A stretch of DNA of 64,000 nucleotides from Takakia lepidozioides (GCA_030704615.1 CM060731.1:74400001-74464000), one strand, 5' to 3'; shown: positions 2,580 through 42,037, counted from the first letter of the stretch. Program-made: numbers and translations. The notes: a model not told the origin generated them from the letters alone.

Positions 2580-5329
2580 CGTTTTTACCCCAGGACTGTT
2601 GAAAGTTATTGATGAGCTGCCTGCCACGTTGTTCTGAAGATCTGGAAACAGCTGCACACAACATATCCCAAGCCTTCCTTCCCTCAGTAAGCAGGTCTTG
2701 ATAAATGCAAAAAAACACAGACCTGCCCCTGGGGGCTCTCCCTTAAAAAACAAGAGCACATCTAACCTTCCAGAGGTTCCATAAGGTTAAAGCTCTTAGA
2801 CTTGCCCATTCAGGGCAAACAGATGGCACGTGAGCAGGCAAGAAATTCAAGAGCAGAAGAGAGGAGGGGGCTGGGGATGGAAAAGACTCCCAACATGAGT
2901 AAAAGTGTAACACAGCTCTCCAAACTCTAGCAGGGAAGGGGCAGTCTACCAGGCAGTGCTCGATGGACTCAGGGTGTGACATACACAAACCGCAAGTAGC
3001 ATTGTTGAATAAGGTCTTGGCATTGACAGGCAAGATTCTATGAGCCAGCTTCCACAAAAAGCCTAAGATTTTGGCATCCCTTTGTTTTTCCATATTGTTA
3101 TGGGTCTCAACAACGAGTGACCTAACTTCACCGAATAAGCAAAGAAATGGGAGTGGTGCTCATCCTTCCAGCTCCATTCCTCGGGGTCGAACTGTAAAGC
3201 AGCCAATGGGTAGCGTAGAAACCAAGTGAAACTGGAGTGCAAGGCCCATTGCAATTCCCCCCCCTACGGTGGGGCTGGGTTGGCATTTCCTTTGTCATCA
3301 AGCACCCTTATGGGGTACAGAGATGCTTGTGCAAATCCGCATAGCCTGTCAGCTGCAGGTTGCCCTCACAGTCTGAAATGAACTGAATTCCAGAGGCTAT
3401 CTGATCATTCATAGAAAGGACCAGCATGACAGTACCACCTCCATTGGTTGTTGAAGTAAGGCTAGATCAATTTACTCCATGGTATGTGACGGTGTGTAAT
3501 GGCCCTAGGGATCCACTTGGCTAAAAGAGCCTTGATCTGTGCTGCTGGATCCAAAATTGCAAACCCCCCCTTCTTTTTGGGCTGGCAGAGTTGCTCCCAA
3601 GAAAGCAGAGCCCGTCTTACCGGAGTTTGCACTGTTGCGCCCCAGATAAAATTCCGAATAAGAGCTTTTATCTCTTTCACCATGGAGGTACCTGGGTCCC
3701 ACACTGCTGCAGAGAACCAACAAGAGGCCAGTAGAACCTGGTTTGCCACTAGTGCCCGTCCAGCAATTGAGAGCATGGAGGAGCTCCAGTGGGCAAGAGA
3801 TCTTTTCAATCTGGAAAGTACGTTATGCATTCTGCTCTGTTGGGACACATTAATTCCAACCTAATGGCCCAGCAGCGTGTGGGATTCCCCTTCCTGAACC
3901 CATCGGAGGCCAATGTCTTCCCCCCAAGCAGCACAGTGAGCAGAGGAAGCTTGACTCTGCAACACCGAGAGAAGTCCCACCGACTTTCCCCAATTGATTT
4001 TCAAGCCAGAGCCAAGACAGAAAATGTGCAGGGCTTCAAGTGCATGATCAATGTTGTCACGGGATGAATTGTCCAGCATTAAGGAGGTATCATCAGCATA
4101 CATTGACAGCTTCACCATTTCCGGTAGGAAGGTAGGTAAATGAAGGCCCACAATGTCCTACCTGGCTTCAAACAAGTGCCCAAGAGAATCTGCCGCAATG
4201 AGAAAGAGGAAAGGTGCCAATGGGCACCCTTGTCTCACTGACCTAGAGATAGGGAAGGATTGGGAGATGACACCATTCACCATTACCTTACTAGAGGCAG
4301 ACTGAAGAAGGATCCTTACCCAAGACAAGAACTGACCACTTAAACCTGTTTTTTCCAAAGCAGCGAGGAGGAAGGTCCAGTCAATAGAGTCAAAAGCTTT
4401 TTCAAAATCCAACATCAAGAAAGCAAGAGGCTGATTGTTCAGATTTGCCCGGTGAAGCGCTTCATGGGCCAGCATGATGTTATCCAAGATCATACGGTCT
4501 TTAAGAAAACCGGTCTGCTCTTTTCTGATGATCTGAGGCAGCAAGGGCTGGATTCTCAAAGCAAGCGCCTTGGCTATAATCTTGTATGTAGAGTTGAGTA
4601 GGGTGATAGGTCGGTAGTTGGTTACGTTGTCCCTCTCCCCCTTTTTGTAGATGAGAGTGATAAGGCCTTCGGAGATCTGAGAGGGCATCACCTGCTTCTG
4701 GAGGATGTCGTTGGTCATACCCAGAAAGTCATCTCCAAGAGTTCCCCACAAAGATTGAAAAGCTCAATGGGCAGACCATCTGAAGAAGCCGGCTGCAATG
4801 GTGGCCATCTTCTTCAGGACAACACTTGGAATGCCAACATCATCACGCAAAGAGGGGATCAAAGTAGAAGCACGACGCTGAGCAGCTTTAGCAAAGAAAT
4901 ATTTAGACATTTTTTCCCCCTTCATCGACCAATTTACCCCTGCCTTGACCCTAATGAACTGCTCCCTGGAATGTAACAACAAAGAGAGATTCTTCTTGGT
5001 TGTTTTGTAGGAGATCATGGTTTGAGGGTTATCTCTACCTTCTTGAAGCTGGTACTGACAGACATGAAGGCATTTTGTGAGTGCCCTCTCTTTTCTGGAG
5101 GTGTCTTCGGCCTTTTTCCTAGACAATTTCTGACAGATGCCTTTCAACTTTTGCAGCTTGGATAGAAAGAGGAGAGTGGGAGAGGTGAAAGGTAGGTCAG
5201 CAGAGGACCAAACTCTTTGCAGCTCTAGAACAACCTCTGGGTCTTTGAGGAGGGAGGGGTTGAGCTTAAAGAAACCTCTACCCTTTGCTCTTGTCCCCGG
5301 GGTGTGTAAAGAGAGATTGACAATGGAGT
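2580..5329 (-). pseudogene. LINE ORF2, C-terminal part: end of endonuclease, reverse transcriptase, zf-RVT (frameshifted)
   Basis: NYRPITLLNSTYKIIAK, LDFEKAFD, RQGCPLAPFLF, MYADD, CGLC..ESIEHCLVDC and LWNLWKVRC spread across ORFs 2743-5357. Confidence 0.92.
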
Positions 5330-5852
5330 TGTCGTGCGCATACATATCGCTACACAACTACATCGCTGTCCAAACCACACCATACATATATGCACAATAA
5401 AGTAGTCTGCCACAATGATAGAAATCCATCGAACACACTGTGACACAAAACATGAAAACCAAACCATCACTCTTAGAAAATAGTAGTCGAGCCAGGGGCA
5501 CCCCAAGCTATGGGGACTCCACCCCACAACAACCTGTACCCCTACATACGCACACTCAAATCTAAACACATGCAGGAGCTCGGTCGCGCAGGCTCAACTC
5601 GAGAAAGATGAGCCGCGCGACTGCCGCTCTCGTGAAGATAAGACGGACCAGGTGTCAAACTAAACTTGACACCTGATTTAACACTTGACCTAAATCCAAG
5701 TGTTAAATACAAATAACTAGTTTTATTCTAGCTGTTTTCACACTGTGCTTATTTAACTTGACAGCTGTCGTGCGCATACATATCGCTACACAACTACATC
5801 GCTGTCCAAACCACACCATACATATATGCACAATAAAGTAGTCTGCCACAAT
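5330..5852 (-). repeat. 3' split-repeat block of copy 1: B1 (5766-5852), gc, A2 (5417-5763), B2 (5330-5416)
   Basis: The two 87-bp B copies read identical; the 347-bp A2 reads identical to 16947-17293. Confidence 0.95.
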
Positions 5853-5864
5853 CGCCCCCCTAGC
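5853..5864 (-). promoter_or_regulatory. Polypurine tract-like GCTAGGGGGGCG abutting B1
   Basis: The same sequence sits at the same position in copy 2 (42284-42295). Confidence 0.75.
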
Positions 5865-6109
5865 TGGTGGATAGGTCCCTCTACCTCCAGATAGCTACAA
5901 GATGTAATAGCCACAGCCGTACTAAGTCCTCTATCACTGTCCCTATTGTACTCAAACTCTATAGACCAAGAGGCCGGGTACAAGAGTAGCCCCATCGTTA
6001 GTCGCCATCTTGCAATCTGTGAACTTGAGCCAGGACCTCGTGTGTTCAAGGTCTCCTAGTAGCTGGGCCTTGGTTGCTTGTTAGTCTCCCATGGTTGTAT
6101 CCACTCCCA

Positions 6110-9100
6110 CTATCCAATGCATTGTGGACATAACCAATCCCCATCTGGAACCATCTCAAGAGGTGGAGTCAAGCACCCCATATGCCAACCTCTAGAGCAT
6201 CGATCACACACCAGCATGGTGGCTGCCCCTTTAGCAGACCCACACAACATGCACCTCAAACCTGCAGATACCACTGCCAGGTTTGGGTCAATCCTGCCAT
6301 CGACATTCGGAAGGTGACATGGCGCACAATTACGCACATGGTCCTTCCAAGTGATGCCATCCCGACCCTCCAAGACCAAGACGCCTGAGGGCAAGACCTC
6401 TCGAACCCTCAAAATAACACGTCCTGCAGTCACATCCAGGGTCGTAGGAGCAGTCTGCTGCAGATAGACATAGTCACCAGGGTTGAATCTCCGAACCCCA
6501 GGACGATAGCCCCCACCACGTATGGTAGCATACCTCAACGTATCACGGTGTTGTGCAATGGCAAGGTTCTCGAAAGCCATAGGCATGACTCTCTTGAACA
6601 ACTCTGCACGCTGCTCACATGCACGTGCCCACACGTCCGGATCGTCAAGGTTAAGAACTGTAGCAGCTTCTCTGCGAATGGATGTAGGCAAATCCGGCTC
6701 TCGGCCAAAGAGAAGAAAGTATGGTGAGAAAGAGGCAAGTGATGCTTGCTTGCTGAACCTGTAGCCCATGGCTAACCAGGGTAACTGAAGGTCCCAATCT
6801 CCTAGGTGTCCCTTCTGCAAGCCATACTTGCGCAAACCCCTCTTCACTGTCTGAACAACTCTCTCTGCCAAGCCATCAGCTTCAGGATGATCCCGAGAAG
6901 TGGTGCGGTGGTCTATCAAGGCCTTGTCACACAAAGCCTGAAACTCCCCCAAGAACTCTCTCCCTTGGTCCGTGAGTACCTCAGCTGGAGCACCGAATCG
7001 GCTAAGCACACAATCCAGGAATGCATACGCAGCTCCCTCACTAGCCTTATCAGGCAATGGAACCAATTCAATCCACTTGGAGAAGTGCTCCACCATCACC
7101 AACACGTACTTGTTGTGGCGCATGGTCAGTGGCAACGGCCCTGCGAAGTCAAGACTCCACCTGTAGCCCAATCCCATGATCGGAAGAGGGTGCAATTGTG
7201 GAGTAGGGGCGTTGAATGAAGCACGCACCCTGTCACACACCATGCACCTAGCCACAAATTGTTGCACCTCTGTGTGCATACCACGCCACCAATACTGCCC
7301 CTGCAGTAGACTATGAGTGCGTCGCACCCCAAAATGCCCCAACTCCTCATGGGCATGCCGCACTAACCGTGCCCGCTGTGTTGGGTGAGGCACAATCCTC
7401 ACTCGACCATCCTCCCACACTCGGAGCAGGTGTGTCCCCTCCCACCTGAACCTCTTGGCTCGTTGTAGGATCCGATCCCTCTCCTTGGCAGTCATAGTGG
7501 CTGCCGTGTCTCCACTGCGGAGGTAGTCCAACACAACTGAATCCTCATGTATATCTTTGGCGCCACCCTGCTCATTGCTGGCCTCAGGGTCCTCAGACAC
7601 TTGATCTACAGTCATCCCTGTTGTAGGTCCAACCTGGCCTTCCGCTGCCAAGATACACAGAAATGCAGATGCATGCCATCCGGGCACCATCTCCTCGTCC
7701 GTCTCACCATGCCACCGAGCTCCAGTGTCATCCTGCTGGCTCGTGCATGGATTGCGACTCAACCCATCTGCATTTCGATTGACCAAACCCGGTCGATGCA
7801 CCACCTGAAAGTCATACTCTTGAAGGATGAGTGCCCACCGTGCAAGCTTCCCCGTAAGCTTGTCTGACTCCATCAACCACTTGAGTGGTTGGTGATCCGT
7901 GACAAGGGTGAAGAGATTGCCGTATAGATAGCACCTGAAGTGTGCCACGGCCCACACTGCAGCTAAGCATTCTCCCTCATATGAGCTATACTTAGACTCT
8001 GCAGCATTGTTCGAGCGACTAGCATAAGCCACTACGAACTCTCTTCCCTCATCATCCACCTGTGTGAGCACCGCTCCAAGCCCCAGCATGCTCCAATCTG
8101 TATGCAGCTGAAAAGGACGCCCCCTGATAGGTCGTCTCAAGATGGCGCCGAGGTCAACCTCGCCTTGAGCTCTTGAAAAGCTTGTTCTTGCTCATCTTCC
8201 CACTGCCACTCCTGGTCCACCTTGGTCAGCTTGGTTAGAGCCTTTGCAATGGCACTAAATCCCTTAACAAACCGTCTGTAATAGTTTGCTAACCCCATGA
8301 AAGCTCGAACTCGGCTCACATCCGTGGGCGTGGAACCTGTGCAATGGACTCTACCTTAGTCTGCTGTACCCCCAATCCTCCAGGATATATCATGTGACCC
8401 AGATACTCAATCTGGTTGTGGAAAAACTTGCACTTGCCCGGATGTAACTTCAATCCGTGCGTCCTCAAGCGCTCAAATACCCCCTGAAGGTGTCTCTCAT
8501 GCTCCTCCACCGCAGCACTAAAGATGATGATGTCATCTATGTAGCACCGAGCAAACTCCACCCCTGCTAGAATCCTGTCCATGACTCTTTGAAACTCAGC
8601 GGGAGCGTTTTTAAGCCCAAATGGTAAGAACGCCACTGGTATAGGCAATCCTTCCCGTGCTCATTGATCCCCCAGAATGCCGTCTTTTGCTTATCCGCCT
8701 CCTTGATCGGCAACTGGTGATATCCGGATCGTAAATCCAACGTGCTAAAGACCTTGGAATGCCCAATGGCATCAAAGATCTCCTCTGGTGTTGGCATGGC
8801 ATACCTATCGGACTTGGTCTGACGATTTACAGGCCGGTAATCACCGCACATACGTCTCTCCGTCCAATTGCCATAGACATCCTTCTTAGCTGGCATCACT
8901 GTGGCTGAAGCATACTCTCCACCAGAGAGCTCCACCAAACCTGCCTCCCAGAGATCTTGAGTCCTCATCTGAATCAAAGACCTCTCCATGTCACTGTATC
9001 TATAGGGTCTCCGAAAGATTGGCGTGTCAGTGGCCAACTCAATACGGATCTCTTGACCCTTCAGTGCTCCCAAGTCCTTCAAACTGAAGGCAAAGCAATT

Positions 9101-9241
9101 CCTGTAAGCCCTCAGGAACCGCCGTATACGTCGTCTCTCTCCTCCGGTGACAATGGGTCCAATGTCAGGCTCCCAATTGTCCTCCGTAACTGCAACCTTA
9201 AGTCCAGTGGGCTTAGAGGTAGAGGACGCGTCCCGTGGTTG
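6110..9241 (-). CDS. pol: Pol: RT-RNase H-integrase (HHCC, DDE)-PHD finger; three apparent single-base frameshifts
   Basis: RMCGDYRPVN, LDLRSGYHQ, YIDD, LHTDWS..YSSYEGECLA, TDHQPL, H..GH..CxxC, LDFAGP..TDQGREF..GLAER, and C-terminal CMLC..CDRC..WHMGC..WLCPQC. Confidence 0.95.
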
Positions 9242-10520
9242 CTATGCTGCAACCTCTTGAGCAGTACCCCCTTCCTGCTCAGTCAATGACAAGGCCTCAT
9301 CCTGCCCCATCATCTCATCATTGAGAACCTCCTCATCCCGAGAAGAATCCCCAACCTCATCCATCACAGCTGCCTTCGCTGCCAACTCCCTCTGAACCTC
9401 GAGCACCTCCCACATGTGCCATGGATGTCTACACCTCGTGGTCCTCACCGGCTCGCCCCCACTCGCTGCCTGTACCGTCTCGGTAGGCAGAGAGACCATC
9501 AAGGGAAGTGCACTCCGCACTCTACGTTGCTCAGCCATAGCCAAGCTGACAATCCAGGTCAAGCAATTGAGATCCATTGCTTGCCCCAACACCTGACGAC
9601 GTGATGCCTCAGAAAGAGAAGGCACCGCCGTGGTCCCAGTGGAAAACCCCATAGCCCGCTCTCGCTCGTCGGCATTAGGCTCCACTAACTGCTGCAACTG
9701 AGCATCCCACAGGAGGCCAGGTCCACCATCCCGAAAAGCATGGGATCCTGGGAAGCTGAGCAGTGTAGGTAATGCTGCTCGTGGTTGACCCACCCTGTTG
9801 ACCACTGCCAAAGGCGAACGGTCATCGTGTCTCACACGTTGAGACTGCCTTCCTGTGTCCAAAATGCCATCCACGGTGAGGTGTGCTGGCCGCTGCACCC
9901 CATCAAATGCACGCTTGAGCAGTGCGGGTGGCATCAAGTTAGTCCACCATAGTCGTGGACGATGAGCCCGTGACCCCACTGCAGCTGCATCCAGCAACAC
10001 TGCTGACCCAAGCCACGACCGGACTTGATGCACACTGGCCATCACCCTGGCCCGAGAATCACCCATCAGTGGTACATTCTCCAAGATGTATGCTGGAGAT
10101 ACAGCTTGATGAAGCTGCAAGCAACGCAAAATCCGCACCATCTCCCAAAACAGACCCGTCCTCGAGTCTCGCAATCCATTGCCATGCCCGGCTGATGAAT
10201 GCCCTTGGCAGGGCCAACCTGCCACTATCAGATCAATGGAGCCAACCTGCTCCAAATCTTGCGCCCCCAACAAGGAAATGTCTGCTGGCAAGGCTTGTTG
10301 GTATCCACGAACTGCAGACACAGGCAACAAGTCAGGGTACTGCTGTACCAACTGAGCCACATGGCGCAGTGAGACGCGTCGTGCAGTCTCATCCCTCTCC
10401 ACATACAGGTAACGCCTTACCCGCACACCTGCCTGTAGCACAGCAGCCAATCCGGTGCTGATCCCGCCAAACAAGTCCAGAAGGCAAATGCCTTCATCCG
10501 GCCGCTGCCACACAAGAGGT
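9242..10520 (-). CDS. DNMT3-like C5 cytosine DNA methyltransferase domain within the retroelement polyprotein
   Basis: Motif I LDLFGGISTG, II YLYVE, IV DLIVAGWPCQ, VI YILENV, VIII AHRPRLWWTN, IX ERERAMGF, X RRQVLGQAM; spacing and wording parallel DNMT3 catalytic domains. Confidence 0.93.
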
Positions 10521-13257
10521 GTGGTGTCCAATGGCGACAACTGAGGTGGCCCTGGTGCAATCACCGAACTCTCCTCCTCTCCTGACGGTACAAAAGCTTC
10601 TTCCCAAGCTTGTTGCACCCGTCCATCAGCAGCTTGCTGCAAATCCTTGCTCGTACCCCACAACGGGTGTGAGCAACCATGGCAGGCAACTCCGCCGTAC
10701 CATGCATGTCATCCTGCTCTGCTGGAGGTGGCACATCCTCTGCATGGGCATTGCCTTCCAGCAACTCTCCAGGCCAACTAACGGCAGCTGTGAAGGCGGC
10801 TAGTGTTGGCATCTTGCCCCGCTGGGCAGCTGCAATACCCCCAATGAATGTCACAGGGAGCTGTGCACGGCGACCATCCCCTGACTGCCATCCAGGCCTG
10901 TAGGATGCTGACTCCTCCCAGAAATCCAGGGTGAAGCCCATGGGGTATAACACTGCCCCACCAACGAGGACATCGTAAGAGACCGCGTCTGTCACAATGG
11001 CCTTGGCTCGCATCACTGAGCCATCTACAGGATGATCCGGCTGCAGTCTAATAGCCAACTGATGTCGTGTCATGCCGCGAGCCTGCTCTGATCCTCCCAG
11101 AGATGTCTGTATCTGGAAAGGACAAGGCTCCATATCCGCCTCCATGAGGCCCAAACCTGCAATAGCAGCTCTGCCCAACATCAGTGGCTGAGCTCCTGAG
11201 TCCAACAAGACCCGCAGTGGCCGGTACTTCTTGCCTGCCGGTCCACTCAAAGTGAAAATGCCTCCCTGGTTGTCTAACAAGACAACTCCAGGTGTCACCA
11301 TGGCGCGCTCAATGGCTGGCCTAGCTGGCAGCTCCGTCAACCTGGCAGCTGCAGCTTGCCAGGGCGCTGCCGTGGCAGTCTTGACCCTCAAATCCGAGGA
11401 TCCCTCTGCCACTACACCTTCCACTAACTCCGCAGAAGATGAAGTGACCTCCCCACTCTCACAGAGTGTTGCTGCTAGTCTGAACACTGCAGCTGGTCTC
11501 ACCCCCGGCGTCGCAATCATTGTTGCCGAGAACAGTGGGGCCTGACACACAGAGGTGGCTGCCCCCAATAACACACCGGCCGCACTAGCCTTGGCAGCAG
11601 GAGTCAATGCTGCACGTGTAGCTCTCCCCAATGGCATAGTAACCTCCGCCTCGGTAACAGTCGGGCGAGAACTAGGTGCCATGGATGGCGTTGACACAGT
11701 CTCCGCCAATGTGAATGACTGAGGAAGCCTTGCCTGACGGCTTGCCTCCCCACGCTGTGGATCCAATTCCACCTCTGCACCTCGTGGCTCAGGAACTCGT
11801 GCTGCTCCTCGAGTCACGGCTGCAGCAGACTCCACCTGCTCTAGTGGTAGTGCTGCTCCGCACATAAATCCCATGCCTCCCATATCTCCTCCCTCAGGAG
11901 CAGGAGGTGGACCATCCCGCCTGGGAGCCGGTACCGCCTGAGCTATAGCCATGGCAGCGAGCCTCTGCTCTAGCTGCTGAAGCCGGTTGGCCATGCCTTG
12001 ATCAACGCCTGACCTCCGCGTCCTTGGCCATGTTGAGCTTGCCCTTGGCCTGCACCTCGTGCCCGACCACCTCGTCCTCTCTGGGCTGGTCCACCTCGCC
12101 CCCGGCCACCATTGTTCCCTTGGAACTGGCCTGGGCGCAACTCAGGATGCAAGTCATAACACTGGGCATCTCCATGCCCATATTTGCCACAATGCCCACA
12201 CTGCAACTGTGCAGGCTGTGCTTGTGCCGGCCTTCTGCCACTCTCTGGGCAATCTCTCTTGACATGGGGTCCTCCACATGTCCAACATATCACCCCTGGT
12301 TGCTGTTGGCCTGCAAAAGATGCCACGGGCCTTTGCACCTGAGGCCCCTGTAAGCTCCATGGAACTTGGGCTGGGCAACCTTGCCCCCCTGACCACGCTG
12401 TTGGGCAGTCCCTTGTGCTTGTGGGCTGACAGCTGTGCCCCGTACAGGCATGTCCTTGCCAAATCCAATTGTAACAACTCGTTCCTCCACCATGTTGAGC
12501 TCAATCCGCTCAGCCAGCAGAAACACATCTGCTAATGTGGGTTGGGCTGCTTGTAACAGGGTTGCATCTCGCACCCTTCTCTTGAGCTCCTTGTCCAGAA
12601 TTCCATACCAAAACTGGATTGCCTGAGCTTCAGTAACCCCTTGGGTCACACTTATCAAGCGCCTCATACGAGTGTACGCCTCTCGCAGGCTCTCACTGGG
12701 TTTGCGCTGGAAGTCTTGCAAACTTCGCAGCTTCTCTGTCCGTACACCTTGGTAGTTCCTCCGCAACTCCTGGAAGAACTCCACCACCGGGTTGAATCTA
12801 GGCACATGTGTTGTAGCTGTGGCAGGAGGAGTAGTAGCACCTTTGAACTGGTACCACCTGCAGAAGTACCAGCACTACCTGCTCCACTACTAGTGCTGGC
12901 AGTGGGAGCTATTGGTACTGATGCAGCTACTGGTCGCGTCATGCCTCGAGTAATGGAGATGTAGTCAGGTGACCAATACATCCTCCACTCCTCAATCTCT
13001 GCTTCATGTCCTCGCCTGAACTCGTGGTAATCGTCCATAGGCGGGCCTTCCAAATGCTGGAACAGTCCCTTCCACGCCATGAATGGGGTGAATAGATGTG
13101 GATTGCGCATCTGCTGCAAATCACACCAGCTGTCGAACTCCTGGATAAAGTCATCCAACTCGATTGTGCCCACAGCTCCAGAGTACCTACGAGGCCCCTT
13201 GGTAGCTCCATACATCTCCTCCATGTCGTCCCACAACAATGGCGAATGAAAGTGCAC
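10521..13257 (-). CDS. gag: Gag (capsid-like region, two CCHC knuckles, RGG-rich tail) plus aspartic protease; apparent frameshifts
   Basis: QRKPSESLREAYTR, CWTCGGPHVKRDC, CGHCGKYGHGDAQC, protease VLLDSGA and YDVLVG. Confidence 0.88.
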
Positions 13258-15554
13258 ACCTGTTGATGAAGCCTCCGAGCCTGTGTCTGACTCTACAGTA
13301 ATTGAGGGGGCGGTGAAGGTGGTCTGAACCGAATACCTCGTCTTGTGAACCCACTCTCACTGTTACTGCCTGTAGCCGTACTCCCCTCAAAACCCTTGGG
13401 TAACTCCGTAATGACACTCACAATGTGCACCTCCTCCAGTGACACTATAAGGCTCTAGTACTAATCTAATAGTGACACGGGTGGGCACCTGTTGCAGTCT
13501 AAGGGTCATATCCCAATGGCTCAGGGCACCTGCACCTGCATCCACCGCAAGAACTCCTATGGTTGGCTGGTCATCAACCCAGCCTCACCATAGAAGAAAC
13601 ACTGGTGGTCTTGCTGGTCATCACTCCAGCCTCACCACCGACAGCATACTCTAGGATTGACCGGTGATCAAATCCGGCCTAATCCCTATGAAAGCAAGCG
13701 CCCACACAAAACCAACATGGCGCACAGTCAAGCATGCAGGTGTTGGGGGGGATCCAAACACAAGAAATCAAAACATCAACACCCCCACACCAAAATCCAG
13801 CAGCAACGTTGATCCTGCAGAATATCCCAGCCCAAACCCCGGACTGACTGGCCTCCACCAAGAGAGGCTTTGGCAACTACAAGTACAAGGTAATGAAAAT
13901 AGTACAGAGATGGAGGGGAAGAATAGAAGCCCGCCCAAGCAAGATCTAACCCTGATCTATGCTATCAACTTCCAGACTTCTCTCAAAGTACCTCGCTCTG
14001 CTTGATGGTAAGGTGTAGGAGGTATATCTATGTCCAGAAACCTGCCACTAACCTTGTCCCAAGCTACAGTAGCTCGCTCTAACCAACCCTCCTCCTCTTT
14101 CTGCCAGGTAGAGACAAAGCAACACTCTGCTATCTCCCGCTCACTGAACACTAAAGAAAACAAAGGTAGGGTCTGATAGTCTCTCAACTCGAAAGCTTTG
14201 AGACGGTTGCGGGTGTCTTCATTGCGAATGACTGCATCGCCTTCAAACAGAACAAACTTGTCCTCGCTAATGAACCCCGCTCGTGGTTGCCTTGTGCAGA
14301 GCGTGTCCGACTGCAACACTGTCTAATTGCACAAACTTGTGCAGCTCCTGCTCCTCTGCTCCAGTACACCACGGCCTTGTGGCTGAACACCTTGGTCCCC
14401 GGTGCTGTCTTTGGCTGTGTTCCAAGCCTAGCTTTCACCCACTTTGGTATTTCACCTACAGCTGCAGAACTGCTGGCTCCAACAGAGTTCTGACTGTCCA
14501 AGGCGATATTGAGGCCCTCAATGCCAACTACAGCAGTCTGTTGTCTACTGCTAATGCCTGACTCCCAGTATGCAATCAACTCGTCCAACTGTTCTCCACT
14601 CAAATCAGTCTGAGTTCCTTGGGAAACATAAATCCTGTCCCCTTGTGTGCACAGGCTAAGAGAAGAGACCTGCCCTTCAATTACGTCCTCATTTCCCCCA
14701 GCCATGCAAGGAGTACATCCACAGGTTTGTCTCTCATATAGGCCAGCACAGGTTCTAGAAACAGGATTGTGGATATTTCGTGGCACACTCACACTCTAAA
14801 AATTCCATAGATTTTTAGCAGAGTCCCAAAAACAGAAACCAGGTCTAGATAGGTAGATTTCCCCTTTCTACAGCTATCCCCTCAAAAACTGTGTCAAACA
14901 GAGTTCATTTGACAAAGATATGACCAATTTGGCTTTACATCATTTAAATTAGATCAAAATGCCCTGTTTTTTTTTTTTTTGAAGGTTTTCAAATTTAAAA
15001 ATTTAAAGTTACCCAAACTATCTGGTAACTGGTTCCCAGTTCCCTACGTTCTTTCCTAGGTTCCCTGGCCACGTGCCCTATAATTCGCACCTTGCTCCAG
15101 TCTTCTGCATACCGAGAGTGAGAGAGAGAGAGAGAGAGGGAATTGTGGCACTCAGTAGTGTCTTGTTGTGAAAGAGAGTGGATTCCGTGATTGCTTGCAG
15201 GCTTGCGCACCAAGAGAGGGGGAGGAAAGACATGTTTATGGACATGTTTATGGACGCCATGTACAGGCGAGGGGTCACTCACAGTCTGCTCGAGGCCTTG
15301 GTGGCTAACGATAAATCACTGAGGAGGATTACCAGCGGGAAGCACTGGACTTTGTGCTGGAGCTTGCGGGTCCCCGGCCCATTCCAGTTACGGGGGAGAA
15401 AGCCCTGGCTCCTGAATCGCCCGTCTATCCCCAGCGTAGCTCGGCTCCGCCGTTCCCAAACCCGTCGTCTCCATCCTGCAGCTGAAACTCTAGCACTTTT
15501 GTGAATGTGAACTGCTTACTGCAGGGAAGTGGGTGTATGGGAGCATTCGAGTCC

Positions 15555-16195
15555 ATAGATGCAACACCGCTTGATCAGGTCATCAACGATGCAATTGACT
15601 GGAGTTTCCGTAAGCAGAATCCAGAGGACTATTGGGCGGGCCAGGTCGAATCAAGCTGTACAATGGAAGCGGAGTGGATTCTGGCTATGCATTTCCTGGG
15701 CGTTACAGATGACCCAAAGAAAGAAAAAGTCGTGCGTTGCATTCGGAGCCTGCAAAGAACTGACGGATCCTGGGACACTTATCATGAAGCTCCTGCAGGT
15801 GACCTTAGCACCACCGTCAAGTGTTATGTGGCCTTAAAAGCGTCAGGATCCCAACCCAATGAAGCATCCATGGTAGCAGCTCGAAAATGGATTTCTGAAC
15901 ATGGTGGACTTCAATCTTTACGACTTTAGCTGCTGGGCAAGGGAAACAGTCGTCCCCCTGACCATCCTTTCTGCTCGGCGCCCAGTACGTCCGCTGCCGC
16001 TCGACTTTTGTTGTCATGAGCTCCATGAACCAGAGGACATGAAACAACATCAAAGCAAGAAAACTACTCTTTCAAATCTCGCCAGACATGTCTGTGAAAG
16101 TTTATTCCTCTACTTCGGCAAGTTCCTCATATGGTATGGTAAGAGCCGTTCCAAGCCTGGCCGTGAGGTGGCCATCGTATGCTGCTTGGCCTGAA
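15555..16195 (+). pseudogene. shc: Squalene-hopene cyclase N-terminal fragment with internal deletion, captured in the retroelement leader
   Basis: QNPEDYWAGQVESSCTMEAEWILAMHFLG, QRTDGSW, GDLSTTVKCYVALK, ARKWISEHGGL then FNLYDFSCWARETVVPLTILSARRP match the SHC N-terminal consensus. Confidence 0.85.
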
Positions 16196-16932
16196 TCCTT
16201 TGGTGACAAGATTCTGACGGCACTTGTTGTGGTGTACAACCTCCTTGGGTGTACTCGTTGATGACGTTGAGCTATATATCGCCTGCTTACTGTAGGGAAT
16301 CAGGCCAGAATACGTTCGTCGTTCGTTTCTGCTGAATTGGTCAGAAGACAATTCCAAGCCCGGAACCTAGGGCGCATACAATGCAGCAACCCCAAGAACG
16401 GAAAGCGCAAAGTTCTGCTGTTGGCGAGGCTCCATAGCAACCATATACACGGAACTCCATCCTCTGCGCATTGCGAAGAGGATGCCGCTTTTCTGCTCCA
16501 TAGCCCTGCCCCTTAACCCGCTGCATGGCGCTCTTGCATGATCAAAGCAAATGATTGACAAAGAAGCTGAAGCTAAATTTTGGTCCAAGACCAACCCCGA
16601 TACAAAAATCAATTGCAACAGCAGGCTCCTCTATAGGCTTACTGGTGAAACGATCATCCAGCTTCAAGGATCATGCATAGGTGCCAACTAGCATTTGCTG
16701 CTGCATTTTTAAGTATCTCCTTGTGTACCCCAAAGCCTCTAGTGACTTGGTAGCTTCAGCGACTGCAATAACAATGGCGGCTCTGGCATCGTCATCCTCC
16801 AGGCGTTTCAGGGCACGCTGAATCTTGTGGTCACATTCAATGATATGCTTCTCAAACTAATCACTACTTATACGCAGGTAATCTTGCAAGTGCTAACCCT
16901 CAACTCCTACCTTGCACTCACAGGTAAGAGAG

Positions 16933-16946
16933 CATCTTTCTCGAGT
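16933..16946 (-). promoter_or_regulatory. Putative self-priming primer-binding site ACTCGAGAAAGATG
   Basis: Abuts A1 and is complementary to 17127-17140 inside A1; no TGG-type tRNA PBS is present. Confidence 0.75.
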
Positions 16947-17293
16947 GATAGAAATCCATCGAACACACTGTGACACAAAACATGAAAACCAAACCATCAC
17001 TCTTAGAAAATAGTAGTCGAGCCAGGGGCACCCCAAGCTATGGGGACTCCACCCCACAACAACCTGTACCCCTACATACGCACACTCAAATCTAAACACA
17101 TGCAGGAGCTCGGTCGCGCAGGCTCAACTCGAGAAAGATGAGCCGCGCGACTGCCGCTCTCGTGAAGATAAGACGGACCAGGTGTCAAACTAAACTTGAC
17201 ACCTGATTTAACACTTGACCTAAATCCAAGTGTTAAATACAAATAACTAGTTTTATTCTAGCTGTTTTCACACTGTGCTTATTTAACTTGACA
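16947..17293 (-). repeat. 5' repeat A1 of copy 1
   Basis: Begins TGTCAAG on the minus strand; reads identical to 5417-5763. Confidence 0.95.
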
Positions 17294-17297
17294 GAGT

Positions 17298-31475: not shown

Positions 31476-31477
31476 CA

Positions 31478-32490: not shown

Positions 32491-34971
32491 GCTGCCAAAC
32501 ATAATGAACGTGATGTGGTTGGGCTTCACCCCTCCGCGCATCATTTGCTCACCACATCATGGTGCCCTCACCACATTGTCCTTGACAATTCAGTATGCAT
32601 CTTAGGGCCGAGTCTGATGAGTGGGCAAAACAAGCTGAAATAGGTTGAAGAAGAAGGTGCCAGACATACGTATTTGAATTTGCTGAAATGCTCTGAATCT
32701 GCTGAAATGCCTCCTTGGTTTAAAGTCTGTAGAGCCTCTTTCAGTCTGCCTACCTCACAAAGCATCTTCACATGCCCAGAAATGCCAGAAGAGGCATTGT
32801 GAACTCCCTCTCTTGATCCTCTTCCAGAAGCTAGGTCATGGTTGAGGTGCCAGATTTTATCAACTGTGCCGATGCGTGTGCAAGCCTGGGAGCCCTGGAA
32901 AAGGGGAAAGAGGTCCATGATGACATCGTCAAAGCTGGAATTGTACCAGATGTCATTGTGAACACTACCCTGGTGGACATGTATGCCAAATGTGGGTGCA
33001 TTAAGGATGCGAAGGGAGTTTTCAACACTGTGGCTGAACGAGATGTGGTGTCTGCATGGAACACGATGCTTGCAGGGTATCCACATCAGGGACGTGGTAT
33101 GGAGGCTTTGGAGACCTATGATCAAATGATGGGGGAAGGGGTGAAGCCCAACCACATCACGTTTCTGTGCATTTGCAATGCGTGTGCAAGCCTGACAGCT
33201 CTGGAAAAGGGCAAAGAGGTCCATGGCGACATGGTCAGAGCTGCAGTTGTACCAAATGTCATTCTGAACAATACCCTCGTGGATATGTATGAAGGGAGTG
33301 TTTGACAGTATGGTTGGACGAGATGTGGTGTCGTGGAGTGCGATGATTGCAGGATATGCACAGCAAGGGCGCGGGATGGAGGCTTTGGAGACCTATGAGC
33401 AAATGATGTGCGAAGGGGGTGAAGCCCAACCACATGACATTTGTTTACATTTGCAATGTGTGTGCAAGCCTGGCAGTCCTAGAAAAGTGCAAAGAGGTCC
33501 ATGGTGACATTATCAAATCTGGAATTGTACCCGATGTCATTCTGAACACTGCCCTGGTGGACATGTATATCAAATGCGGGTGCATCGAGGATGCAAATGG
33601 AGTGTTTGACAATACGGCTGAACGAGATGTGGTGTCGTGGATCGCAATGCTTGCAGGGGTATGCACAACAGGGGTGTGGGATGGAGGCTTTGGAGACCTA
33701 TGAGCAAATGATGTGCGAAGGGATGAAAACCAACCACATCACGTTTGTTTGTGTTTGCAATGCATGTGCAAGCCTGGGAGCTCTGGAAAAGGGGAAAGAG
33801 GTCCATGGTGACATCGTCAAAGCTGGAATTGTACCAGATGTCATCCTGAACACTGCCCTGGTGGATGTGTATGCCAAATGTGGGTGCATTAAGGATACGA
33901 AGGGAGTTAATTTTGTCAAGTTATTTTATCACTAGTGTGAAACTAGGTAGGAAATAGCTAGCTTTTACATATTGACATTTGGGATTGGCCCAAGTGTCAA
34001 TTCAGGGGTCAAGGAAGATTTAGGCCCTGGAGTGGTTATCTTCACGGCAAGCGCGGGAGGCTCATCTTTCTCGAGTTGAGCCTCGCCGCGCCTAGCTATG
34101 GCGCTGTAGTGTGGATTCCCCATGGCGTGGGGTGCACTTGGCTTGACTTGTATTTGAGTGATGAGGTTATATATACATGAGTTTATGCTTCAGCTTTGTG
34201 AGCTCGCATGAGCTTGTGCTTGTATTCTTCTTCTTTATCACTCGAGAAAGGTGAGCTCGTATCTGTGAGTGCCAGATACGAGTTAGTTGTAGCACTTGTG
34301 GTTTTTGCTTGAGAATGAGAGAAACTAGGTTGTTATGCAATGAGCACCGTGGAGCTCTTGGTTGTTAGAAGTGGAGGCGATGTGGGTTACGAGGTGGTAG
34401 ACCTTGGCATTCGATCTTCAGCTTCAGAGATTAAAGCACCATGCTGCAGGTAATTCCAGAGCACCTTGATGGTTTCAGATTGTGTACATGCATGAGCAAG
34501 CACGATTGAAAAGAGGACCAGTCAAGAGCAGGTTATAGTGGCTTTGGTGGCAAAGCTGAGAATTGGACTTGGGAATGCGAGCTTTCATTGTGTGAAGGAT
34601 TGCAAGACCAAGCAAAAGGGCTGATTTGGCTTGGGGCAAATCAGTGCACTTTGTGGAGTATGTTAAGATTGGGTTTCAATCTCGAGCTTCAGCATTGAGA
34701 GGGCTCTTGTCATGGCAAGAGTAGGGCTGGAACAGGAGCTGAGAGGTGCGACAAGGCCATGGAATGTGCACCTAGGGTTTCAGAGCTTGGAAGAAGAGCT
34801 CTTGCACCACAAGAGGAGTGTCTTGTGGCTGGAAATGTAAGCCTTAGGGTTTCAGGAGCTTGGCAAAGGCTGTGGAGTGCTTAGTCTTGTCTTAGAGAGC
34901 ATCAAGGAGCCAAGGAGCCAAGGAGCCAAGCTGATACCTCTTGTGTGAAGAGGTTGCATGTGTGGAGCATG

Positions 34972-35334
34972 TGTCAAGTTAAATAAACACAGTGTAAAAC
35001 TAACTAGAATAAAACTAGTTATTTGAATTTAACACTTGGATTTAGTTCAAGTGTTAAGTCAGGTGTCAAGTTTGAGCTTGACACCTGAACCATCTTATCT
35101 TCACGAGAGCGTCAGTCGCGCAGCTCATCTCTCTCGAGTTGAGCCTGCGCGACCGAGCTCCTTCATCGTTTAGAAGCTGAGTGTGCTTATGATGGGAGGA
35201 TAGGTTGTTGTGGGGTGGGGTCCCCATAGCTTGGGGTGCCCCTGGCTCGACTTTTATTTTAAAGAGTGATGGTGTTGGTTTTGTGTTTCTCTTGTTATTT
35301 GAGTTTAGTTCTTTCTTATCACTCGAGAGAGATG
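34972..35334 (+). mobile_element. Nested 5' repeat A plus PBS of a third element (copy-1 subfamily)
   Basis: Starts TGTCAAGTTAAATAA, aligns to the reverse complement of 16947-17293, and is followed by ACTCGAGAGAGATG. Confidence 0.85.
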
Positions 35335-35779: not shown

Positions 35780-38700
35780 CATGGTGGAGGAACAAGTGGT
35801 CATGGTGGGATTTGCTAAGGAGATACCACGGGGTAATGGTGCTCCTAGCCAACCACTACCTCAACGTGCTCAAGGCAACAAGGGGGGCCAGGTGAAGCCC
35901 AGGGAAGGACAGAGAGGACCTCAGATGCAGGGGTCTCTCCCTTCATTTGCAGGCCAACAACGGGCAGAGGTGGTGTGTTGGACATGTGGAGGACCCCATG
36001 TCAAGAAGGATTGCCCAGAGGGAGGCAAAGGACTGGCATATGCACAGTTGTAGTGTGGGCATTGTGGCAAGCACGGGCATGGAGAGGCCCAGTGTTATGG
36101 TTTGCATCCTGAGTTGCGCCCAGGCCAGTTCCAAGGGAACAATGGTGGCCGGGGGCAAAGGTGGGGCAGCCCAGAGAGGACAAGGTGGCCAGGCATGAGG
36201 TGTAGGCCAAGGGCAAGCTCAACATGGCCAAGGACGCGAAGGTCGGGGTGTTGACCAAGGCATGGCCAACTGGCTTCAGCAGCTAGAGCAGAGGTTTGCT
36301 GCCATGGCTACAGCTCAGGTGGTACCGGCTCCAAGGCCGGATGGTCCACCTCCTGCTCCTGAGGGAGGAGATATGGGAGGCATGGGATTCATGTGCGGAG
36401 TAGCACTACCACTAGTGCAGGTGGAGTCTGCTACAGCCGTGACTCGAGGAGCAACACGAGTTCCTGAGCCACGAGGTGCAGAGGTGGAGTTGGATCCACG
36501 GCGTGGGGAGGCAAGCCGTCAGGCTAGGCTTCCTCAATCATTCACATTGGCGGAGACAGTGTCGACGCCATCCATGGCACCTAGTTCTCGCCCGACTGTT
36601 ACCGAGGCGGAGGTTACTATGCCATTGGGGAGAGCTGCACAGGCAGCACCACTACCTAGTGTTGCCAAGGCTACGGCAGCTAGTGTGCTGCTGGGAGCAG
36701 CCACATCTGTGTGTCAAGCTCCATTGTTCTCGGCTACCATGATTGCGACGTCGGGGGTAAGACCAGCTAAGGTGTTCAGGCTGGCAGCTACACTCTGTGA
36801 GAGTGGGGAGGTTACTTCATCTTCTGCGGAGATAGTGGGAGGTGTAGTGCCGGAGGGATCCTCGGATTTGAGGGTCAAGACTGCCACGGCGGCGCCATGG
36901 GAAGCTGCAGCTGCCAGGTTGATGGAGCTGCCAGCTAGGCCAGCCATTGAGCGCGCCATGGTGACACCTGGAGTTGTCATGTTAGACAACCAGGATGGCA
37001 TTTTTTGTTTGAGTGGACCGGAAGGCAAGAGATACCGGCCACTACGAGTTTTGTTGGACTCAGGAGCTCAGCCATTGATGTTGGGCAGAGCTGCTATTGT
37101 AGGCTTGGGCCTCACGGAGGCGGATATGGAGCCTTGTCCTTTCTAGATACAGACATCTCTGGGAGGATCGGAGCAGGCTCGGGGCATGACACGGCGTGAG
37201 TTGGCTATCAGACTACGGTCAGATCACCCTACAGATGGCTCAGTGATGCAAGCCAAGGCCATTGTGACAGACGCGGTCTCATACGATGTCCTGGTTGGTG
37301 GGGCAGTGTTGTACCCCATGGGCTTCACCCTGGATTTTTGGGAGGAGTCAGCTTCCTATAGGCCTGGATGGCAGTCAGGGGAGGGCGGACGTGTGCAGCT
37401 CCCTATGACGTTCATATGAAGAGTTCCGGTTGCCCAGCGAGACAAGATGCCGACACTAGCAGCATTCACAGCTTCAGTGAGTTGGCCTGTGCTTGAGGGC
37501 AACGCTCATTCAGAGAATGTGTCACCTCCGGGAGAGCAGGATGACATGTATGGTATAGCGGAGTTGCCTGCCATGATTGCTCAGACTCCATTGTGGAGCA
37601 CGAGCAAGGATTTGCAGCAGGTTGCTGATCGACGGGTGCAACAAGCCTGGGTAGAGGCTTTTGTACCATCAGGAGAGGAGGAGAGTGCGGGGATTGCACC
37701 AAGACCACCTCAGTTGTCTCCATTGGACACCGCACCTATTGTGAGTATCCGGATAAAGGCATTTGTCTTCTAGACTTGTTTGGCGGGATCAACACCGGAT
37801 TGGCTGTTGTGTTACAGGCGGGTATACGAGTTCGGCATTACCTGTGTGTGGAGAGGGATGAGACTGCACGACGCGTTTCACTTCGTCATGTTGCTCAGTT
37901 GGTGCAACAGTACCTTGAGTTGTTGCCGGTGTCTGCAGTTCGTGGATATCAGCAGGCCTTGCCAGCAGACATTTCGTTGTTGGGGACGCAGGATTTGGAG
38001 TGGGTTGGCTCCATTGATCTGGTAGTGGCAGGTTGGCCCTGCCAAGGGCATTCATCAGCCGGGCATGGCAATGGATTGCGAGACTCGAGGTCAGGTCTAT
38101 TTTGGGAGATGGTGCGGGTTTTGCGCCACTTGCAGCTTCATCAAGCTGTATCTCCAGCATACATCATGGAGAATATGCCACTGATGGATGATTCTCGGGC
38201 CAGGGTGATGGCCAGTGTGCATCAAGTCCGGTCGTGGCTTGGGTCAGCAGTGTTGCTGGATGAAGCTGCAGTGGGGTCACGGGCTCATTGTCAACGGCTA
38301 TGGTGGACTAACTTGATGCCACCCGCACTGCTCAAGCGTGGCCAACACACCTCACAGTGGATAGCATTTTGGACACAGGGAGGCAGTCTCAGCGCGTGAG
38401 GCACGATGACCGTTTGCCTTTGGCAGTGGTCAACAAGGTGGGTCAACCACGAACAACATTACCTACACTGCTCAACTTCCCAGGATCGCATGCTTTCCAA
38501 GATAGTGCACCTGGCCTCCTGTGGGATGCTCAATTGCAACAGTTAGTAGAGCCTAATGCTGACGAGTGTGAGCGGGTGATGGGTTTTACCACTGGTACCA
38601 CGGCGGTGCCGTCTCTTTCTGAGGCATCACGTCGTCAGGTGTTGGGGCAAGCAATGGATCTCAATTGCTTGACCTGGATTATCAACTTGGCTATGGCTAG

Positions 38701-41700
38701 TATACTTCCCTCGATGGTCTCTCTGCCTACCGAGACGGTACAGGCAGTGAGTGGGGGCGAGCATGAGAGGACCACGGGGTGCAGGCATCCATGGCATACG
38801 TGGGAGGTGCTCGAGGTTCAGAGGGAGTTGGCAGCCAAGGTGGCGGTGATGGATGAGGTTGGGGATTTTTCTTGGGTTGAAGAAGTCCTCGAGGATGAGA
38901 TGATGGGGCAGGATGAGGCCTTGTCATTGACTGAGCAGGTAGGGAGTACTGCTCAAGAGGTTACAACATAGCAACCACTGGACGCGTCCTCTACCTCTAA
39001 GCCACTGGACTTAAGGTTGCAGTTACGGAGGACAATTGGGAGCCTGACATTGGACCCATTGTCACCGGAGGAGAAAGACGACGTATACGGCGGTTCCTAA
39101 GGGCTTACAGGAATTGCTTTGCCTTCAGTTTGAAGGACTTGGGAGCACTGCAGGGTCAAGAGATTCGTATTGAGTTGGCCACTGACACGCCAATCTTTCG
39201 GAGACCCTATAGATATAGTGACATTGAGAGGTCTTTGATTCAGATGAGGACTCAAGATCTCTGGGAGGCTGGTTTGGTGGAGCTCTCTGGTGGAGAGTAT
39301 GCTTCAGCCACAGTGATGCCAGCCAAGAAGGATGTCTATGGCAATTGGACGGAGAGACGTATGTGCGGTGATTACCGGCCTGTAAATCATCAGACCAAGT
39401 CCGATAAATATGCCGTGCCAACACCAGAGGAGATCTTTGATGCCATCGGGCATGCTAAGGTCTTTGGCACTTTGGATTTACGATCCGGATATCATCAGTT
39501 GCCGATCAAAGAGGCGGACAAGCAGAAGACGACATCCTGGGGGATCAATGAGCACGGCAAGGATTGCCTATATCAGTGGCGGTTCTTACCATTTGGGCTT
39601 AAGAACGCTCATGCAGAGTTTCAGAGAGTCATGGATAGGATTCTAGCAGGGGTGGACTTTGCTTGGTGCTACATAGATGACATCATCATCTTTAGTGCTA
39701 CGGTGGAGGAGCATGAGAGACACCTTCAGGTGGTATTGGAGCGCTTGAGAGCGCACGGATTGAAGTTGCATCCGAGGAAGTGCAAGTTTTTCCACAACAA
39801 GATTGAGTATCTGGGTCACATGATATATCCTGGAGGATTGGGGGTACAGTAGACTAAGATAGAGGCCATTGCACAAATTCCACGCCCCACGGATGTGAGC
39901 CGAGTTTGAGCTTTCATGGGGTTGGCAAACTATTATAGACGGTTTGTCAAGGGATTTAGTGCCATTGCAAAGGCTCTAACCAAGTTGACCAAGGTGGACC
40001 AGGAGTAGCAGTGGGAAGATGAGCAGAAACGAGCTTTTCAAGAGCTCAAGGCGAGGTTGACCTCGGCGCCTATCCTGATACGACCTATCAGGGGGCGTCC
40101 CTTTCAGCTGCATATGGATTGGAGCATGTTGGGGCTTGGAGTGGTGCTCACACAGGTGGATGATGAGGGAAGAGAGTTCATAGTGGCTTATGCTAGCCAC
40201 TCGAACAACACTGCAGAGGCTAAGTATAGCTCATATGAGGGAGAGTGTTTAGCTGCAGTGTGGGTCGTGACACACTTTAGGTGGATCACCAACCACTCAA
40301 ATGGTTGATGGAGTCAGACAAGTTTACGGGGAAGCTTGCACGGTGGGAACTCATACTCCAGGAGTATAACTTTCAGGTTGTGCATTGACCGGGTTTGGTC
40401 AATCGGTAAAACAGGATGATACTGGAGCTCGGTGGCATGATGAGATGGACAAGGAGATGGTGTCGGGATGGCACGCATCTGCATTTTTGTGTATCTTGGC
40501 ATCGGGAGGTCAAGTTGGACCTACAACAGGGATGACTGTAGACGGAGTGTCTGAGGACCCTGAGGCTAGTGATGAGCCAAGTGGTACCAGAGATATACAT
40601 GAGGATTCGGCTGTGTTGGACTACCTCCGCACGGGAGACACGGCAGCCACTATGACTGCCAGGGAGAGGGATCGGATCCTGCAACGAGCCAAGAGGTTCA
40701 AGTGGGAGGGGATACATCTGCTTTGAGTGTGGGAGGATGGTCGGGTGAGGATTGTGCCTCACCCAACACAGCGTGCACGGTTAGTGCGGCATGGCCATGA
40801 GGAGTTGGGGCATTTTGGAGTGCGACGCACTCACAATTTACTGCAGGGGCAGTATTGGTGGCGTGGTATGCATACAGAGGTGCAACAGTTCGTGGCTAGG
40901 TGCATGGTGTGTGACAAAGTGCGTGCTTTATTCAACGCCTCTACATCACAGTTGTATCCTTTACCAATCATGGGATTGGGCTACAAGTGGAGTCTTGACT
41001 TCGCAGGACCGTTGCCACTGACTATGCGTCACCACAGATATGTATTGGCGATGGTGGAGCACTTTTCCAAGTGGATTGAGTTGGTTCCATTGCCTAACAA
41101 GGCTAGTGAGGGGGCTGCGTATGCATTCTTGGATCGTGTGCTTAGCCGATTCGGTGCTCCAGCTACGGTACTCACGGACCAAGGGAGAGAGTTCTTGGGG
41201 GAGTTTCAGGCTTTGTATGATAAAGCCTTGATAGACCACCGCACCACTTCTCGGAATCATCCTGAGGCCGATGGCTTGGCAGAGAGAGTTGTTCAGACGG
41301 TGAAGAGGGGTTTGCGCAAGTATGGCTTGCAGAAGGGACACCTAGGAGATTGGGATCTTCAGGTGCCTTGGTTAGCCATGGGCTACAGGTTCAGCAAACA
41401 AGCATCACTTGCCTCCTTCTCACCATATTTCCTTCTCTTTGGCCGAGAGCCGGATTTGCCTGCAGCCATTCGTAGAGACACTGCTTAAGTCCTTAACCTT
41501 GACGATCCCGACATGTGGGTACATGCATGTGGTCAGCGTATAGAGTTGTTCAAGAAAGTCATGCCCATGGCTTTTGAGAACCTTGCCATTGCACAGCACC
41601 GTGATACGTTGAGGTATGCCACTGTACGTGGTGGAGGATATTGTCCTGGGGTTCAGAGGTTTAGCCCTAGTGACTATGTTTATTTGCAGCAAACTGCTCC

Positions 41701-42037
41701 TACGACCCTAGATGTCACTGCAGGGCGTGTTATTCTAAGGGTTCGAGAGGTGTTGCCTTCAGGAGTCCTGATCTTGGAGGGTCGGGATGGCATGACTTGG
41801 AAAGACCATGTGCGTAATTGTACGCCATGTCACCTTCCCAATGTTGATGGCAGAGTTGACCCAAACTTGTCAGTGGTACCTGCAGGTTTGAGGTGCATGC
41901 TTTATGGGTCTGCCAAAGGGGCAGCCACCATGCTGGTGTGTGATCGATGCTCAAGAGGTTGGCATATGGGATGCTTGACACCACCTCTTGAGAGGGTTCC
42001 TGATGGAGATTGGTTATATCCACACTGCCTGAGATAG
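35780..42037 (+). pseudogene. Decayed gag(3' half)-PR-DNMT-RT-RH-IN-PHD of copy 2
   Basis: LLDSGA, FGGINTG, GWPCQ, IMENMP, YIDD, LDFAGP, TDQGREF and a PHD remnant; multiple CAG>TAG and CGA>TGA stops. Confidence 0.93.

Follow-up and report, generated by a model that had tools for sequence, protein, structure and literature searches.

Of the systems described so far, KnitGypsy-Dnmt3 from Klebsormidium nitens (de Mendoza et al. 2018) is the nearest to the element considered here, as the legend of its Fig. 4 gives it Gypsy domains and repeats 'the same as that of a DIRS retrotransposon' (PMC5890265). We found both of these characters, a Gypsy polyprotein with a cytosine methyltransferase and DIRS-like repeats (PMC5890265), in a window of Takakia lepidozioides DNA (GCA_030704615.1 CM060731.1:74400001-74464000), this being the whole stretch of 64,000 nt that was analysed. 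The window carries two copies of a Ty3/Gypsy-type element in which a split direct repeat takes the place of two equal long terminal repeats (LTRs), with segment A at the left end and B, A, and B at the right. The layout is thus not wholly unreported, since the same legend had given it previously, without a mechanism (PMC5890265). For the rest, the two elements are compared by description only, as the part of PMC5890265 consulted gives no integrase attachment (att) site, target duplication, polypurine tract (PPT), primer binding site (PBS), self-priming, short form, or mechanism, and its main text contains neither the word PHD nor the word fern. A K. nitens protein (P0072) is 45% identical to the RNase H-integrase part of the window element. 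Named matches to the methyltransferase come from liverworts, Sphagnum, Cymbomonas, and one metagenome-assembled record, with none named Klebsormidium and most matches unnamed. A streptophyte Gypsy-DNMT3 is also mentioned in a preprint (bioRxiv 10.64898/2026.05.21.726589), the part consulted giving no repeat structure. In the literature covered, which left Repbase, theses, and subscription journals outside, we found no description of split or permuted LTRs together with a DDE integrase.

Three further systems invite comparison. With PAT/Ngaro elements, SymbioDIRS-Dnmt3 included, the Takakia element shares the A-coding-B-A-B order, and in both the fused ends recur as an internal joint; unlike them, it has no tyrosine recombinase but a DDE integrase, 4-bp target duplications, a PPT, a PBS, and an A|B joint that appears to be fresh. 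To our knowledge, a DDE-type target duplication of fixed length does not occur in the DIRS order. The Tf1/Sushi-related Ty3 elements and Tcn1 show the same Ty3 domain order and a DDE integrase, and self-priming is predicted for the plant Tcn1 clade (PMC6317226, in the part consulted), to which PBS complementarity alone corresponds here. In contrast to these, the element here has a PHD finger for the chromodomain, a methyltransferase, a D-34-E spacing, and no equal LTR pair. Because the survey in PMC6317226, as far as its methods were consulted, required paired TG/CA LTRs from LTR-FINDER, it would presumably not have collected such elements. Lastly, the integrases of HIV-1 and foamy virus cleave palindromic LTR-LTR junctions, and in the parts of these reports consulted, it is a matter of argument, based on cleavage in vitro, whether in retroviruses a DDE integrase can use an internal circle junction productively (PMC1905944, PMC1180852). 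The likeness lies in an integrase that cuts, or would cut, an internal CA-spacer-TG palindrome. In the retroviral case, the palindrome is itself the end-joined junction and its cutting restores a normal provirus (PMC1905944, PMC1180852), whereas here the palindrome would be templated inside the repeat, with the end-joined junction elsewhere and the product permuted.

Read 5' to 3' on the minus strand, copy 1 (5330-17293) consists of ACTC, A1, PBS, internal region, PPT, B1, GC, A2, B2, and ACTC, and on the plus strand copy 2 (33914-42991) follows as ATTT, A1, PBS through to PPT, B1, GC, A2, B2, and ATTT. Here, coordinates and repeat alignment agree with the layout given for both copies in a preliminary description of this DNA, and the 4-bp duplications that it had named (GAGT and ATTT) are found at the outer ends. 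In copy 1, A1 and A2 are identical (348/348), as are B1 and B2 (87/87), with one A at the A|B joint assignable to either side, such that 347 and 87 are equally valid lengths. On account of this identity we regard copy 1 as a young insertion, despite a coding region that is split among several frames. In copy 2, A1 and A2 are 96.5% and B1 and B2 94.7% alike (gaps left uncounted). Copy 1 interrupts the endonuclease-reverse transcriptase reading region of a long interspersed nuclear element (LINE), and copy 2 a repeat with fragments elsewhere in the window, which we take to be PPR-like (with no tool match for this label). As the interrupted repeats are distinct, the two copies are, judged by their flanks, independent insertions, as had been claimed. 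Moreover, the 64 kb contain GACAGCTGTC just twice (at 5760 and 42482), and hence at the two B|A joints only, where the palindrome GACA-GC-TGTC had already been noted.

The window has a third left end, inside copy 2. This additional A (34972-35321) starts with TGTCAAG and is not preceded by B. The copy 2 region at 33914-35385 therefore contains two left ends about 1.06 kb apart, which belong to different subfamilies and each have a PBS of their own; a nested insertion followed by recombination is the likely origin.

To see how far the layout extends, we turn to relatives from a scan of metagenome contigs, in which 504 were confirmed and the best 80 loci analysed (46-81% best-segment identity). 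Eleven shared-flank duplicates were removed (L036, L007, L027, L054, L060, L061, L064, L066, L072, L076, and L078). Also excluded from the right-end count were L057 (internal deletion), L056 and L065 (truncated where their contigs end), and L011, L015, L040, and L069 (att present, B2 unresolved), and at the remaining loci among the 80 the right end was unreadable. The split layout is the rule in these relatives. All 11 distinct left ends show A (TGTC or TCTC) straight after host DNA, none with B, and the 43 distinct right ends divide into 21 of the long form PPT-B-nn-A-B, where nn stands for two nucleotides, and 22 in which PPT-B is followed by host DNA (the B-only form). Of these B-only ends, 21 stop at ACA, and none of the 22 then enters a TGTCA-like start. 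For the ten relatives with both ends visible, a 4-bp duplication is exact in seven, matches at 3/4 letters in two, and is lacking in one (L055), so that nine of ten, like both window copies, depart from the DIRS order in this respect. The preliminary description had proposed to test whether A..B-A-B with a 4-bp duplication is the rule; it had not foreseen the B-only form, which accounts for about half of the right ends. A majority of conventional full LTRs, which the preliminary description had named as one finding that would refute its interpretation, did not appear, as no conventional LTR end was seen among the 11 left and 43 right ends or in either window copy. In terms of Ty3/Gypsy membership, then, the two equal terminal LTRs are missing, and the PBS, PPT, and short target duplication are all present.

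That these are ordinary LTR elements, rearranged by nested insertion, post-insertion recombination, or mis-assembly, seems very improbable to us, and for the long form we consider it refuted. Copy 2 is a nested chimera and L007 a chimeric contig, and B1 x B2 recombination could yield B-only ends. Yet three subfamilies of relatives and the two window copies all break at the same points of the layout, their outer ends are flanked by target duplications, and none of the ends counted above is conventional. Moreover, median terminal branch lengths are about equal in the B-only and long forms (0.042 versus 0.040 and 0.050 versus 0.051, from small samples), giving no sign of an age-dependent collapse. 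In the subfamily 1 tree, the branches of L031, L034, and L067 are inflated by insertions before the PPT.

The B|A joint itself is uniform. It reads as ACA, 2 nt, and TGTCA in 21/21 long right ends, and its spacer is always exactly 2 nt, with the letters AC (10), AT (6), GC (4), and GT (1), which could reflect methylation decay of GC. The motif GACA(A/G)(C/T)TGTC occurs 23 times in 48,651 nt located at most 700 nt after pol versus 0 times in 530,314 nt elsewhere. It lies 56-192 nt past the G run of the PPT, and perfect arms of 7-9 bp are kept at 45-54% amino-acid identity (L040, L069, L083, and L084); the palindrome was undetected in L085-L087, of which two extend about 410-510 nt past pol. By these signs, the att joint behaves as templated. 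An att palindrome templated within the LTR that reverse transcription would define, with 2 nt lost at integration, had been proposed from the window, and dozens of related insertions now support it. The claim that the unit bounded by PPT and PBS lacks TG and CA ends fared less evenly, because in the window alone this unit can be read as AT-TG...CA; at the family level it holds, as the PPT-defined end in relatives begins with AGTTG, ATACATG, or ACTTGAG and thus has no conserved TG.

The A|B joint varies. Its length departs from the subfamily mode in 7 of 19 copies (2/9 and 5/10), versus 0/19 for the att joint (Fisher p = 0.008), with L071 and L075 omitted owing to an ambiguous anchor. The extra letters are the first ones of the PBS, a G from the PPT side, or fillers of 19-20 nt, and no such change is seen at the PPT|B1 boundary of these 19 copies. 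Nor do joint types follow the tree, since the sisters L042 and L055 differ and the non-sisters L050 and L055 share a length, and the only sister pair with a rare joint in common, L063 and L066, is one single insertion. In addition, B1 and B2 are more alike within an element than between elements (0.940 versus 0.912 and 0.929 versus 0.906), and those of one element have private variants in common, including a 4-nt insertion in L044; as classes, B1 and B2 have no differing columns. Because the joint varies and B2 copies its own element's B1, both are likely to be made anew in each cycle. Variation of the joint between copies had previously been put forward as grounds for rejecting end joining, and this we correct, as such variation is its expected signature; in dozens of related insertions it supports the proposal that the A|B joint arises by end joining.

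It is against this background that a PAT/Ngaro-like replication is best weighed. According to it, the RNA would span A2-B2, both joints would be templated, and a DDE integrase would have replaced the recombinase. The A...B-A-B order is indeed the same as in SymbioDIRS-Dnmt3 (PMC5890265, in the part consulted), and the two window copies have one A|B joint in common. However, the PPT and the putative self-priming PBS are placed exactly at the start of B and the end of A, joint variation is independent of the tree, and B2 has no lineage of its own, the rare joint of L063 and L066 being that single insertion again. We therefore disfavour this explanation and hold it to be quite improbable.

In the coding content, Pfam matches comprise gag, a weak aspartic protease, C5 DNA methyltransferase, reverse transcriptase, RNase H, H2C2, the rve integrase core, and a PHD finger, and the order gag-protease-reverse transcriptase-RNase H-integrase with a DDE integrase is that of Ty3/Gypsy. 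For the integrase, the best solved relatives are those of Ty3 and foamy virus. The usual spacing between the last two catalytic residues is 35. In this family it is one shorter, with a D-to-E spacing of 34 in 27 of 31 aligned proteins and 32 in one, the other three being unmatched. At the C-terminus, a PHD finger (PF00628) replaces the chromodomain, of which there is no match among those listed for the window and L081. In support of the earlier interpretation, the DDE integrase is not accompanied by a tyrosine recombinase, none being found among the 89 open reading frames (ORFs; at least 75 aa) of the window's two copies or the 13 ORFs of the intact relative L081. What the preliminary description had overlooked are the methyltransferase and PHD finger, the third left end, and the PBS pairing inside A. 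Between the gag-protease-methyltransferase and reverse transcriptase-RNase H-integrase-PHD frames, we noticed an in-frame TAG followed by CAR-YYN, both in the window (9242-9244, minus strand) and in L081 (3489-3491), L011, L015, and several other loci. Since TAG-CAR-YYN is similar to the context in which tobacco mosaic virus has its leaky stop, programmed read-through at this TAG is likely.

With regard to priming, the PBS is complementary to a site within A, not to a tRNA. The letters past A1 pair with A at about positions 145-195, clearly so in 8 of 14 left ends (0-2/200 shuffles) and more weakly in six decayed ones, and the pairing holds in L081 too. In every subfamily tested, the paired PBS and A sequences differ from those of the other subfamilies yet stay complementary, and TATA-like letters lie upstream in some cases. 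Going by complementarity, self-priming as in Tf1 is likely. From the positions of PPT and PBS, we infer that the LTR defined by reverse transcription is B-GC-A, with the integration site within it. Up to cDNA synthesis, then, the element is Ty3-like, and only the repeat order is held in common with PAT/Ngaro.

Our preferred reading, to which we give slightly better than even chances on the strength of these sequence patterns, is that of a Ty3/Gypsy element whose DDE integrase would cut the palindrome inside the LTR of a cDNA with ends joined beforehand, as a two-LTR circle or an equivalent. The core that it shares with the cut-first and strand-jump models considered below, namely an internal att site plus a joint formed de novo, is highly probable. 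Transcription would start in the middle of A1 and end in A2, and the 5' end of the RNA would pair with the PBS and prime itself as in Tf1. Standard strand transfers would then give [B-GC-A]-internal-[B-GC-A], and its ragged cDNA ends, bearing remnants of primer and PPT, would be joined to form the A|B joint. Next, the PBS-side repeat would be cut by the integrase, with a nick following each CA of CGACA-GC-TGTCA, the 2 nt would be dropped, and insertion with a 4-bp duplication would produce A-internal-B-GC-A-B. Were the cut made instead in a circular intermediate with one repeat, or at the two att sites of a linear cDNA, the product would be A-internal-B. Without the 3' repeat on which strand transfer depends, such a product would presumably be a dead end, leaving propagation to the end-joined form alone. 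In retroviruses, the two-LTR circle is usually regarded as a dead end or side product.

Several observations weigh against this reading. Foremost, the mirror form A-B-nn-A...B, expected from a symmetric circle, is found at none of the 11 left ends (p = 0.0005 for an expected share of one half and 0.012 for one third), and the left end is a plain A in all five B-only copies that show both ends. A preference for the PBS-side att is consequently needed, which the model does not explain, and the covalent circle is for the same reason only a plausible intermediate. The earlier statement that a two-LTR circle is opened at one internal att is thus unsupported as worded, given that there would be two such sites on a symmetric circle, with the PPT-side product being the missing one. 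Moreover, the pairing expected for self-priming is weak in some decayed copies, where many shuffles reach the observed value (34/200 in L031 and 83/200 in L037). The A|B joint is identical in the window's two copies, and among the host contigs listed it is the main form, with few variants. Finally, metagenome assemblies can be chimeric, as L007 is, and L055 is the relative with no target duplication.

Two alternatives keep the internal att and the fresh joint. In the first, cutting would precede sealing, such that the integrase cuts the left-repeat att of a linear cDNA, the intasome keeps the B piece, both att ends are inserted, and host break repair joins A2 to B with no covalent circle. This predicts an identical layout and a ragged joint with 19-20 nt fillers, and if the left repeat turned double-stranded first, there would also be a reason for the missing mirror forms. 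Against this, each productive insertion would require a transient chromosomal break, and failed repair should leave truncated right ends, whereas PPT-B-nn-A followed by host DNA is seen at no right end in which B is recognisable; this absence is qualified by some loci that do end in unrelated DNA ahead of the PPT. On balance, we deem this cut-first route unlikely, if to be taken seriously. In the second, reverse transcriptase would make the A|B joint by jumping between cDNA ends and copying B, after which the integrase cuts att. Here too, a fresh and imprecise joint with B2 equal to B1 would result, and possible microhomology exists in that the start of the PBS and the start of B have an A in common in every subfamily (six letters in L081). 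However, the L082 joint is without the shared A, the 19-20 nt fillers look more like host repair, and the missing mirror form is likewise left unexplained, all of which makes such a jump rather improbable in our estimation.

Returning to the end-joined cDNA with an internal att, we give an even chance to its evolutionary extension, according to which, in a widespread Ty3 lineage of green plants, the integrase att site would have shifted away from the cDNA ends and into a templated palindrome within the LTR, with the end-joined two-LTR circle as the sole productive intermediate and about half of insertions being one-repeat dead ends. Named relatives are found in Riccia, Calypogeia, Marchantia, Sphagnum, Coleochaete, Closterium, Klebsormidium, Volvox, and Cymbomonas, and viral contigs gave no match by either DNA pattern or protein. 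In its host, the family is highly repetitive. Two of the host contigs listed cover the PPT and B as far as 5766 and then enter other sequence, which is only a hint that the B-only form exists in this organism. Should the family depend on an internal-junction cut, the question would be testable in tractable hosts, as Marchantia, Sphagnum, and Klebsormidium are among the genera with named relatives. There is in addition an annotation gap, as tools that look for paired LTRs would overlook the family or set its boundaries wrongly, with consequences for LTR-based dating. More speculatively, an integrase able to recognise and open a short palindrome could serve for the insertion of circular DNA.

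Among the relatives, L081 (1-9285) is an apparently intact element of 9,158 nt with a single B-GC-A repeat and two long open frames. Its contig, with ends that overlap by 127 nt, was assembled as a circle within a cyanobacterial metagenome-assembled genome, and L082-L087 likewise put the family in prokaryotic genome records; for L081, eukaryotic contamination is the likely explanation. The circular assembly was considered as proof of an episome and rejected, since repeat collapse yields an identical contig. In the flank of L033, positions 1017-1426 may represent an old solo A-B of the third subfamily; a clear target duplication is missing there.

Table 1. Positions of the element's features in the Takakia window, counted from its first nucleotide.
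Feature	Position	Strand	Remarks
Copy 1
Target site duplication GAGT, element's right flank	5326..5329	+	
B2, terminal B copy	5330..5416	-	87 bp, end ...CGACA, identical to B1
A2, TGTCAAG...TATC/A	5416..5763	-	A|B joint TATC-A-TTG at 5417/5416, putatively end-joined
att palindrome GACA-GC-TGTC	5760..5769	.	B end, 2-nt spacer, A start
GC spacer	5765-5764	-	
B1	5766..5852	-	Immediately past the PPT
Polypurine tract AGCTAGGGGGGCG	5853..5865	-	G run kept in relatives
RNase H-H2C2-DDE integrase (D,D-34-E)-PHD finger ORF	6110..8191	-	693 aa
Reverse transcriptase	8316..9241	-	Two frames in copy 1
C5 cytosine DNA methyltransferase ORF	9242..10708	-	Ends TAG CAA CCA, in frame with reverse transcriptase
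gag and aspartic protease region	10561..13356	-	Several frames in copy 1, single ORF in L081
PBS ACTCGAGAAAGATG	16933..16946	-	Complementary to a site inside A, presumed self-priming
A1, left end	16946..17293	-	TGTCAAG start abutting host DNA
Self-primer site in A1 (A positions 153-167)	17127..17141	-	Likely RNA 5' end
Target site duplication GAGT, element's left flank	17294..17297	+	ACTC on minus strand
Copy 2
Target site duplication ATTT, left	33910..33913	+	
A1, then its PBS	33914..34240	+	
Additional copy-1-type A	34972..35321	+	90% to copy 1 A, own PBS, inside copy 2
Internal region	35916..42295	+	88.6% to copy 1 across 6.5 kb, decayed, PPT at its end
Right end	42296..42991	+	B1 42296-42485, GC 42486-42487, A2 42488-42801, B2 42801-42991
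Target site duplication ATTT, right	42992..42995	+	

In its long leader, copy 1 has captured fragments of a squalene-hopene cyclase host gene in antisense orientation (15486..16194, plus strand), and these are absent from copy 2. Together with the named relatives, the captured fragments make a seed-free land plant the likely host. Elsewhere in the window, fragments of the repeat presumed to be PPR-like occur dispersed and in tandem, in both orientations, at 31200-33910, 42993-43440, and 55880-57450. There is also an inverted duplication of 1.2 kb (1-1203 and 20376-21569), with 884 bp being 100% complementary, and arrays of a 53-bp unit are located at 17891-18780 and 44574-45614, inverted relative to each other. 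Lastly, a tandem repeat with a 181-bp unit lies at 46686-47355, and a 600-bp direct repeat at 43909-44509 and 48625-49238.

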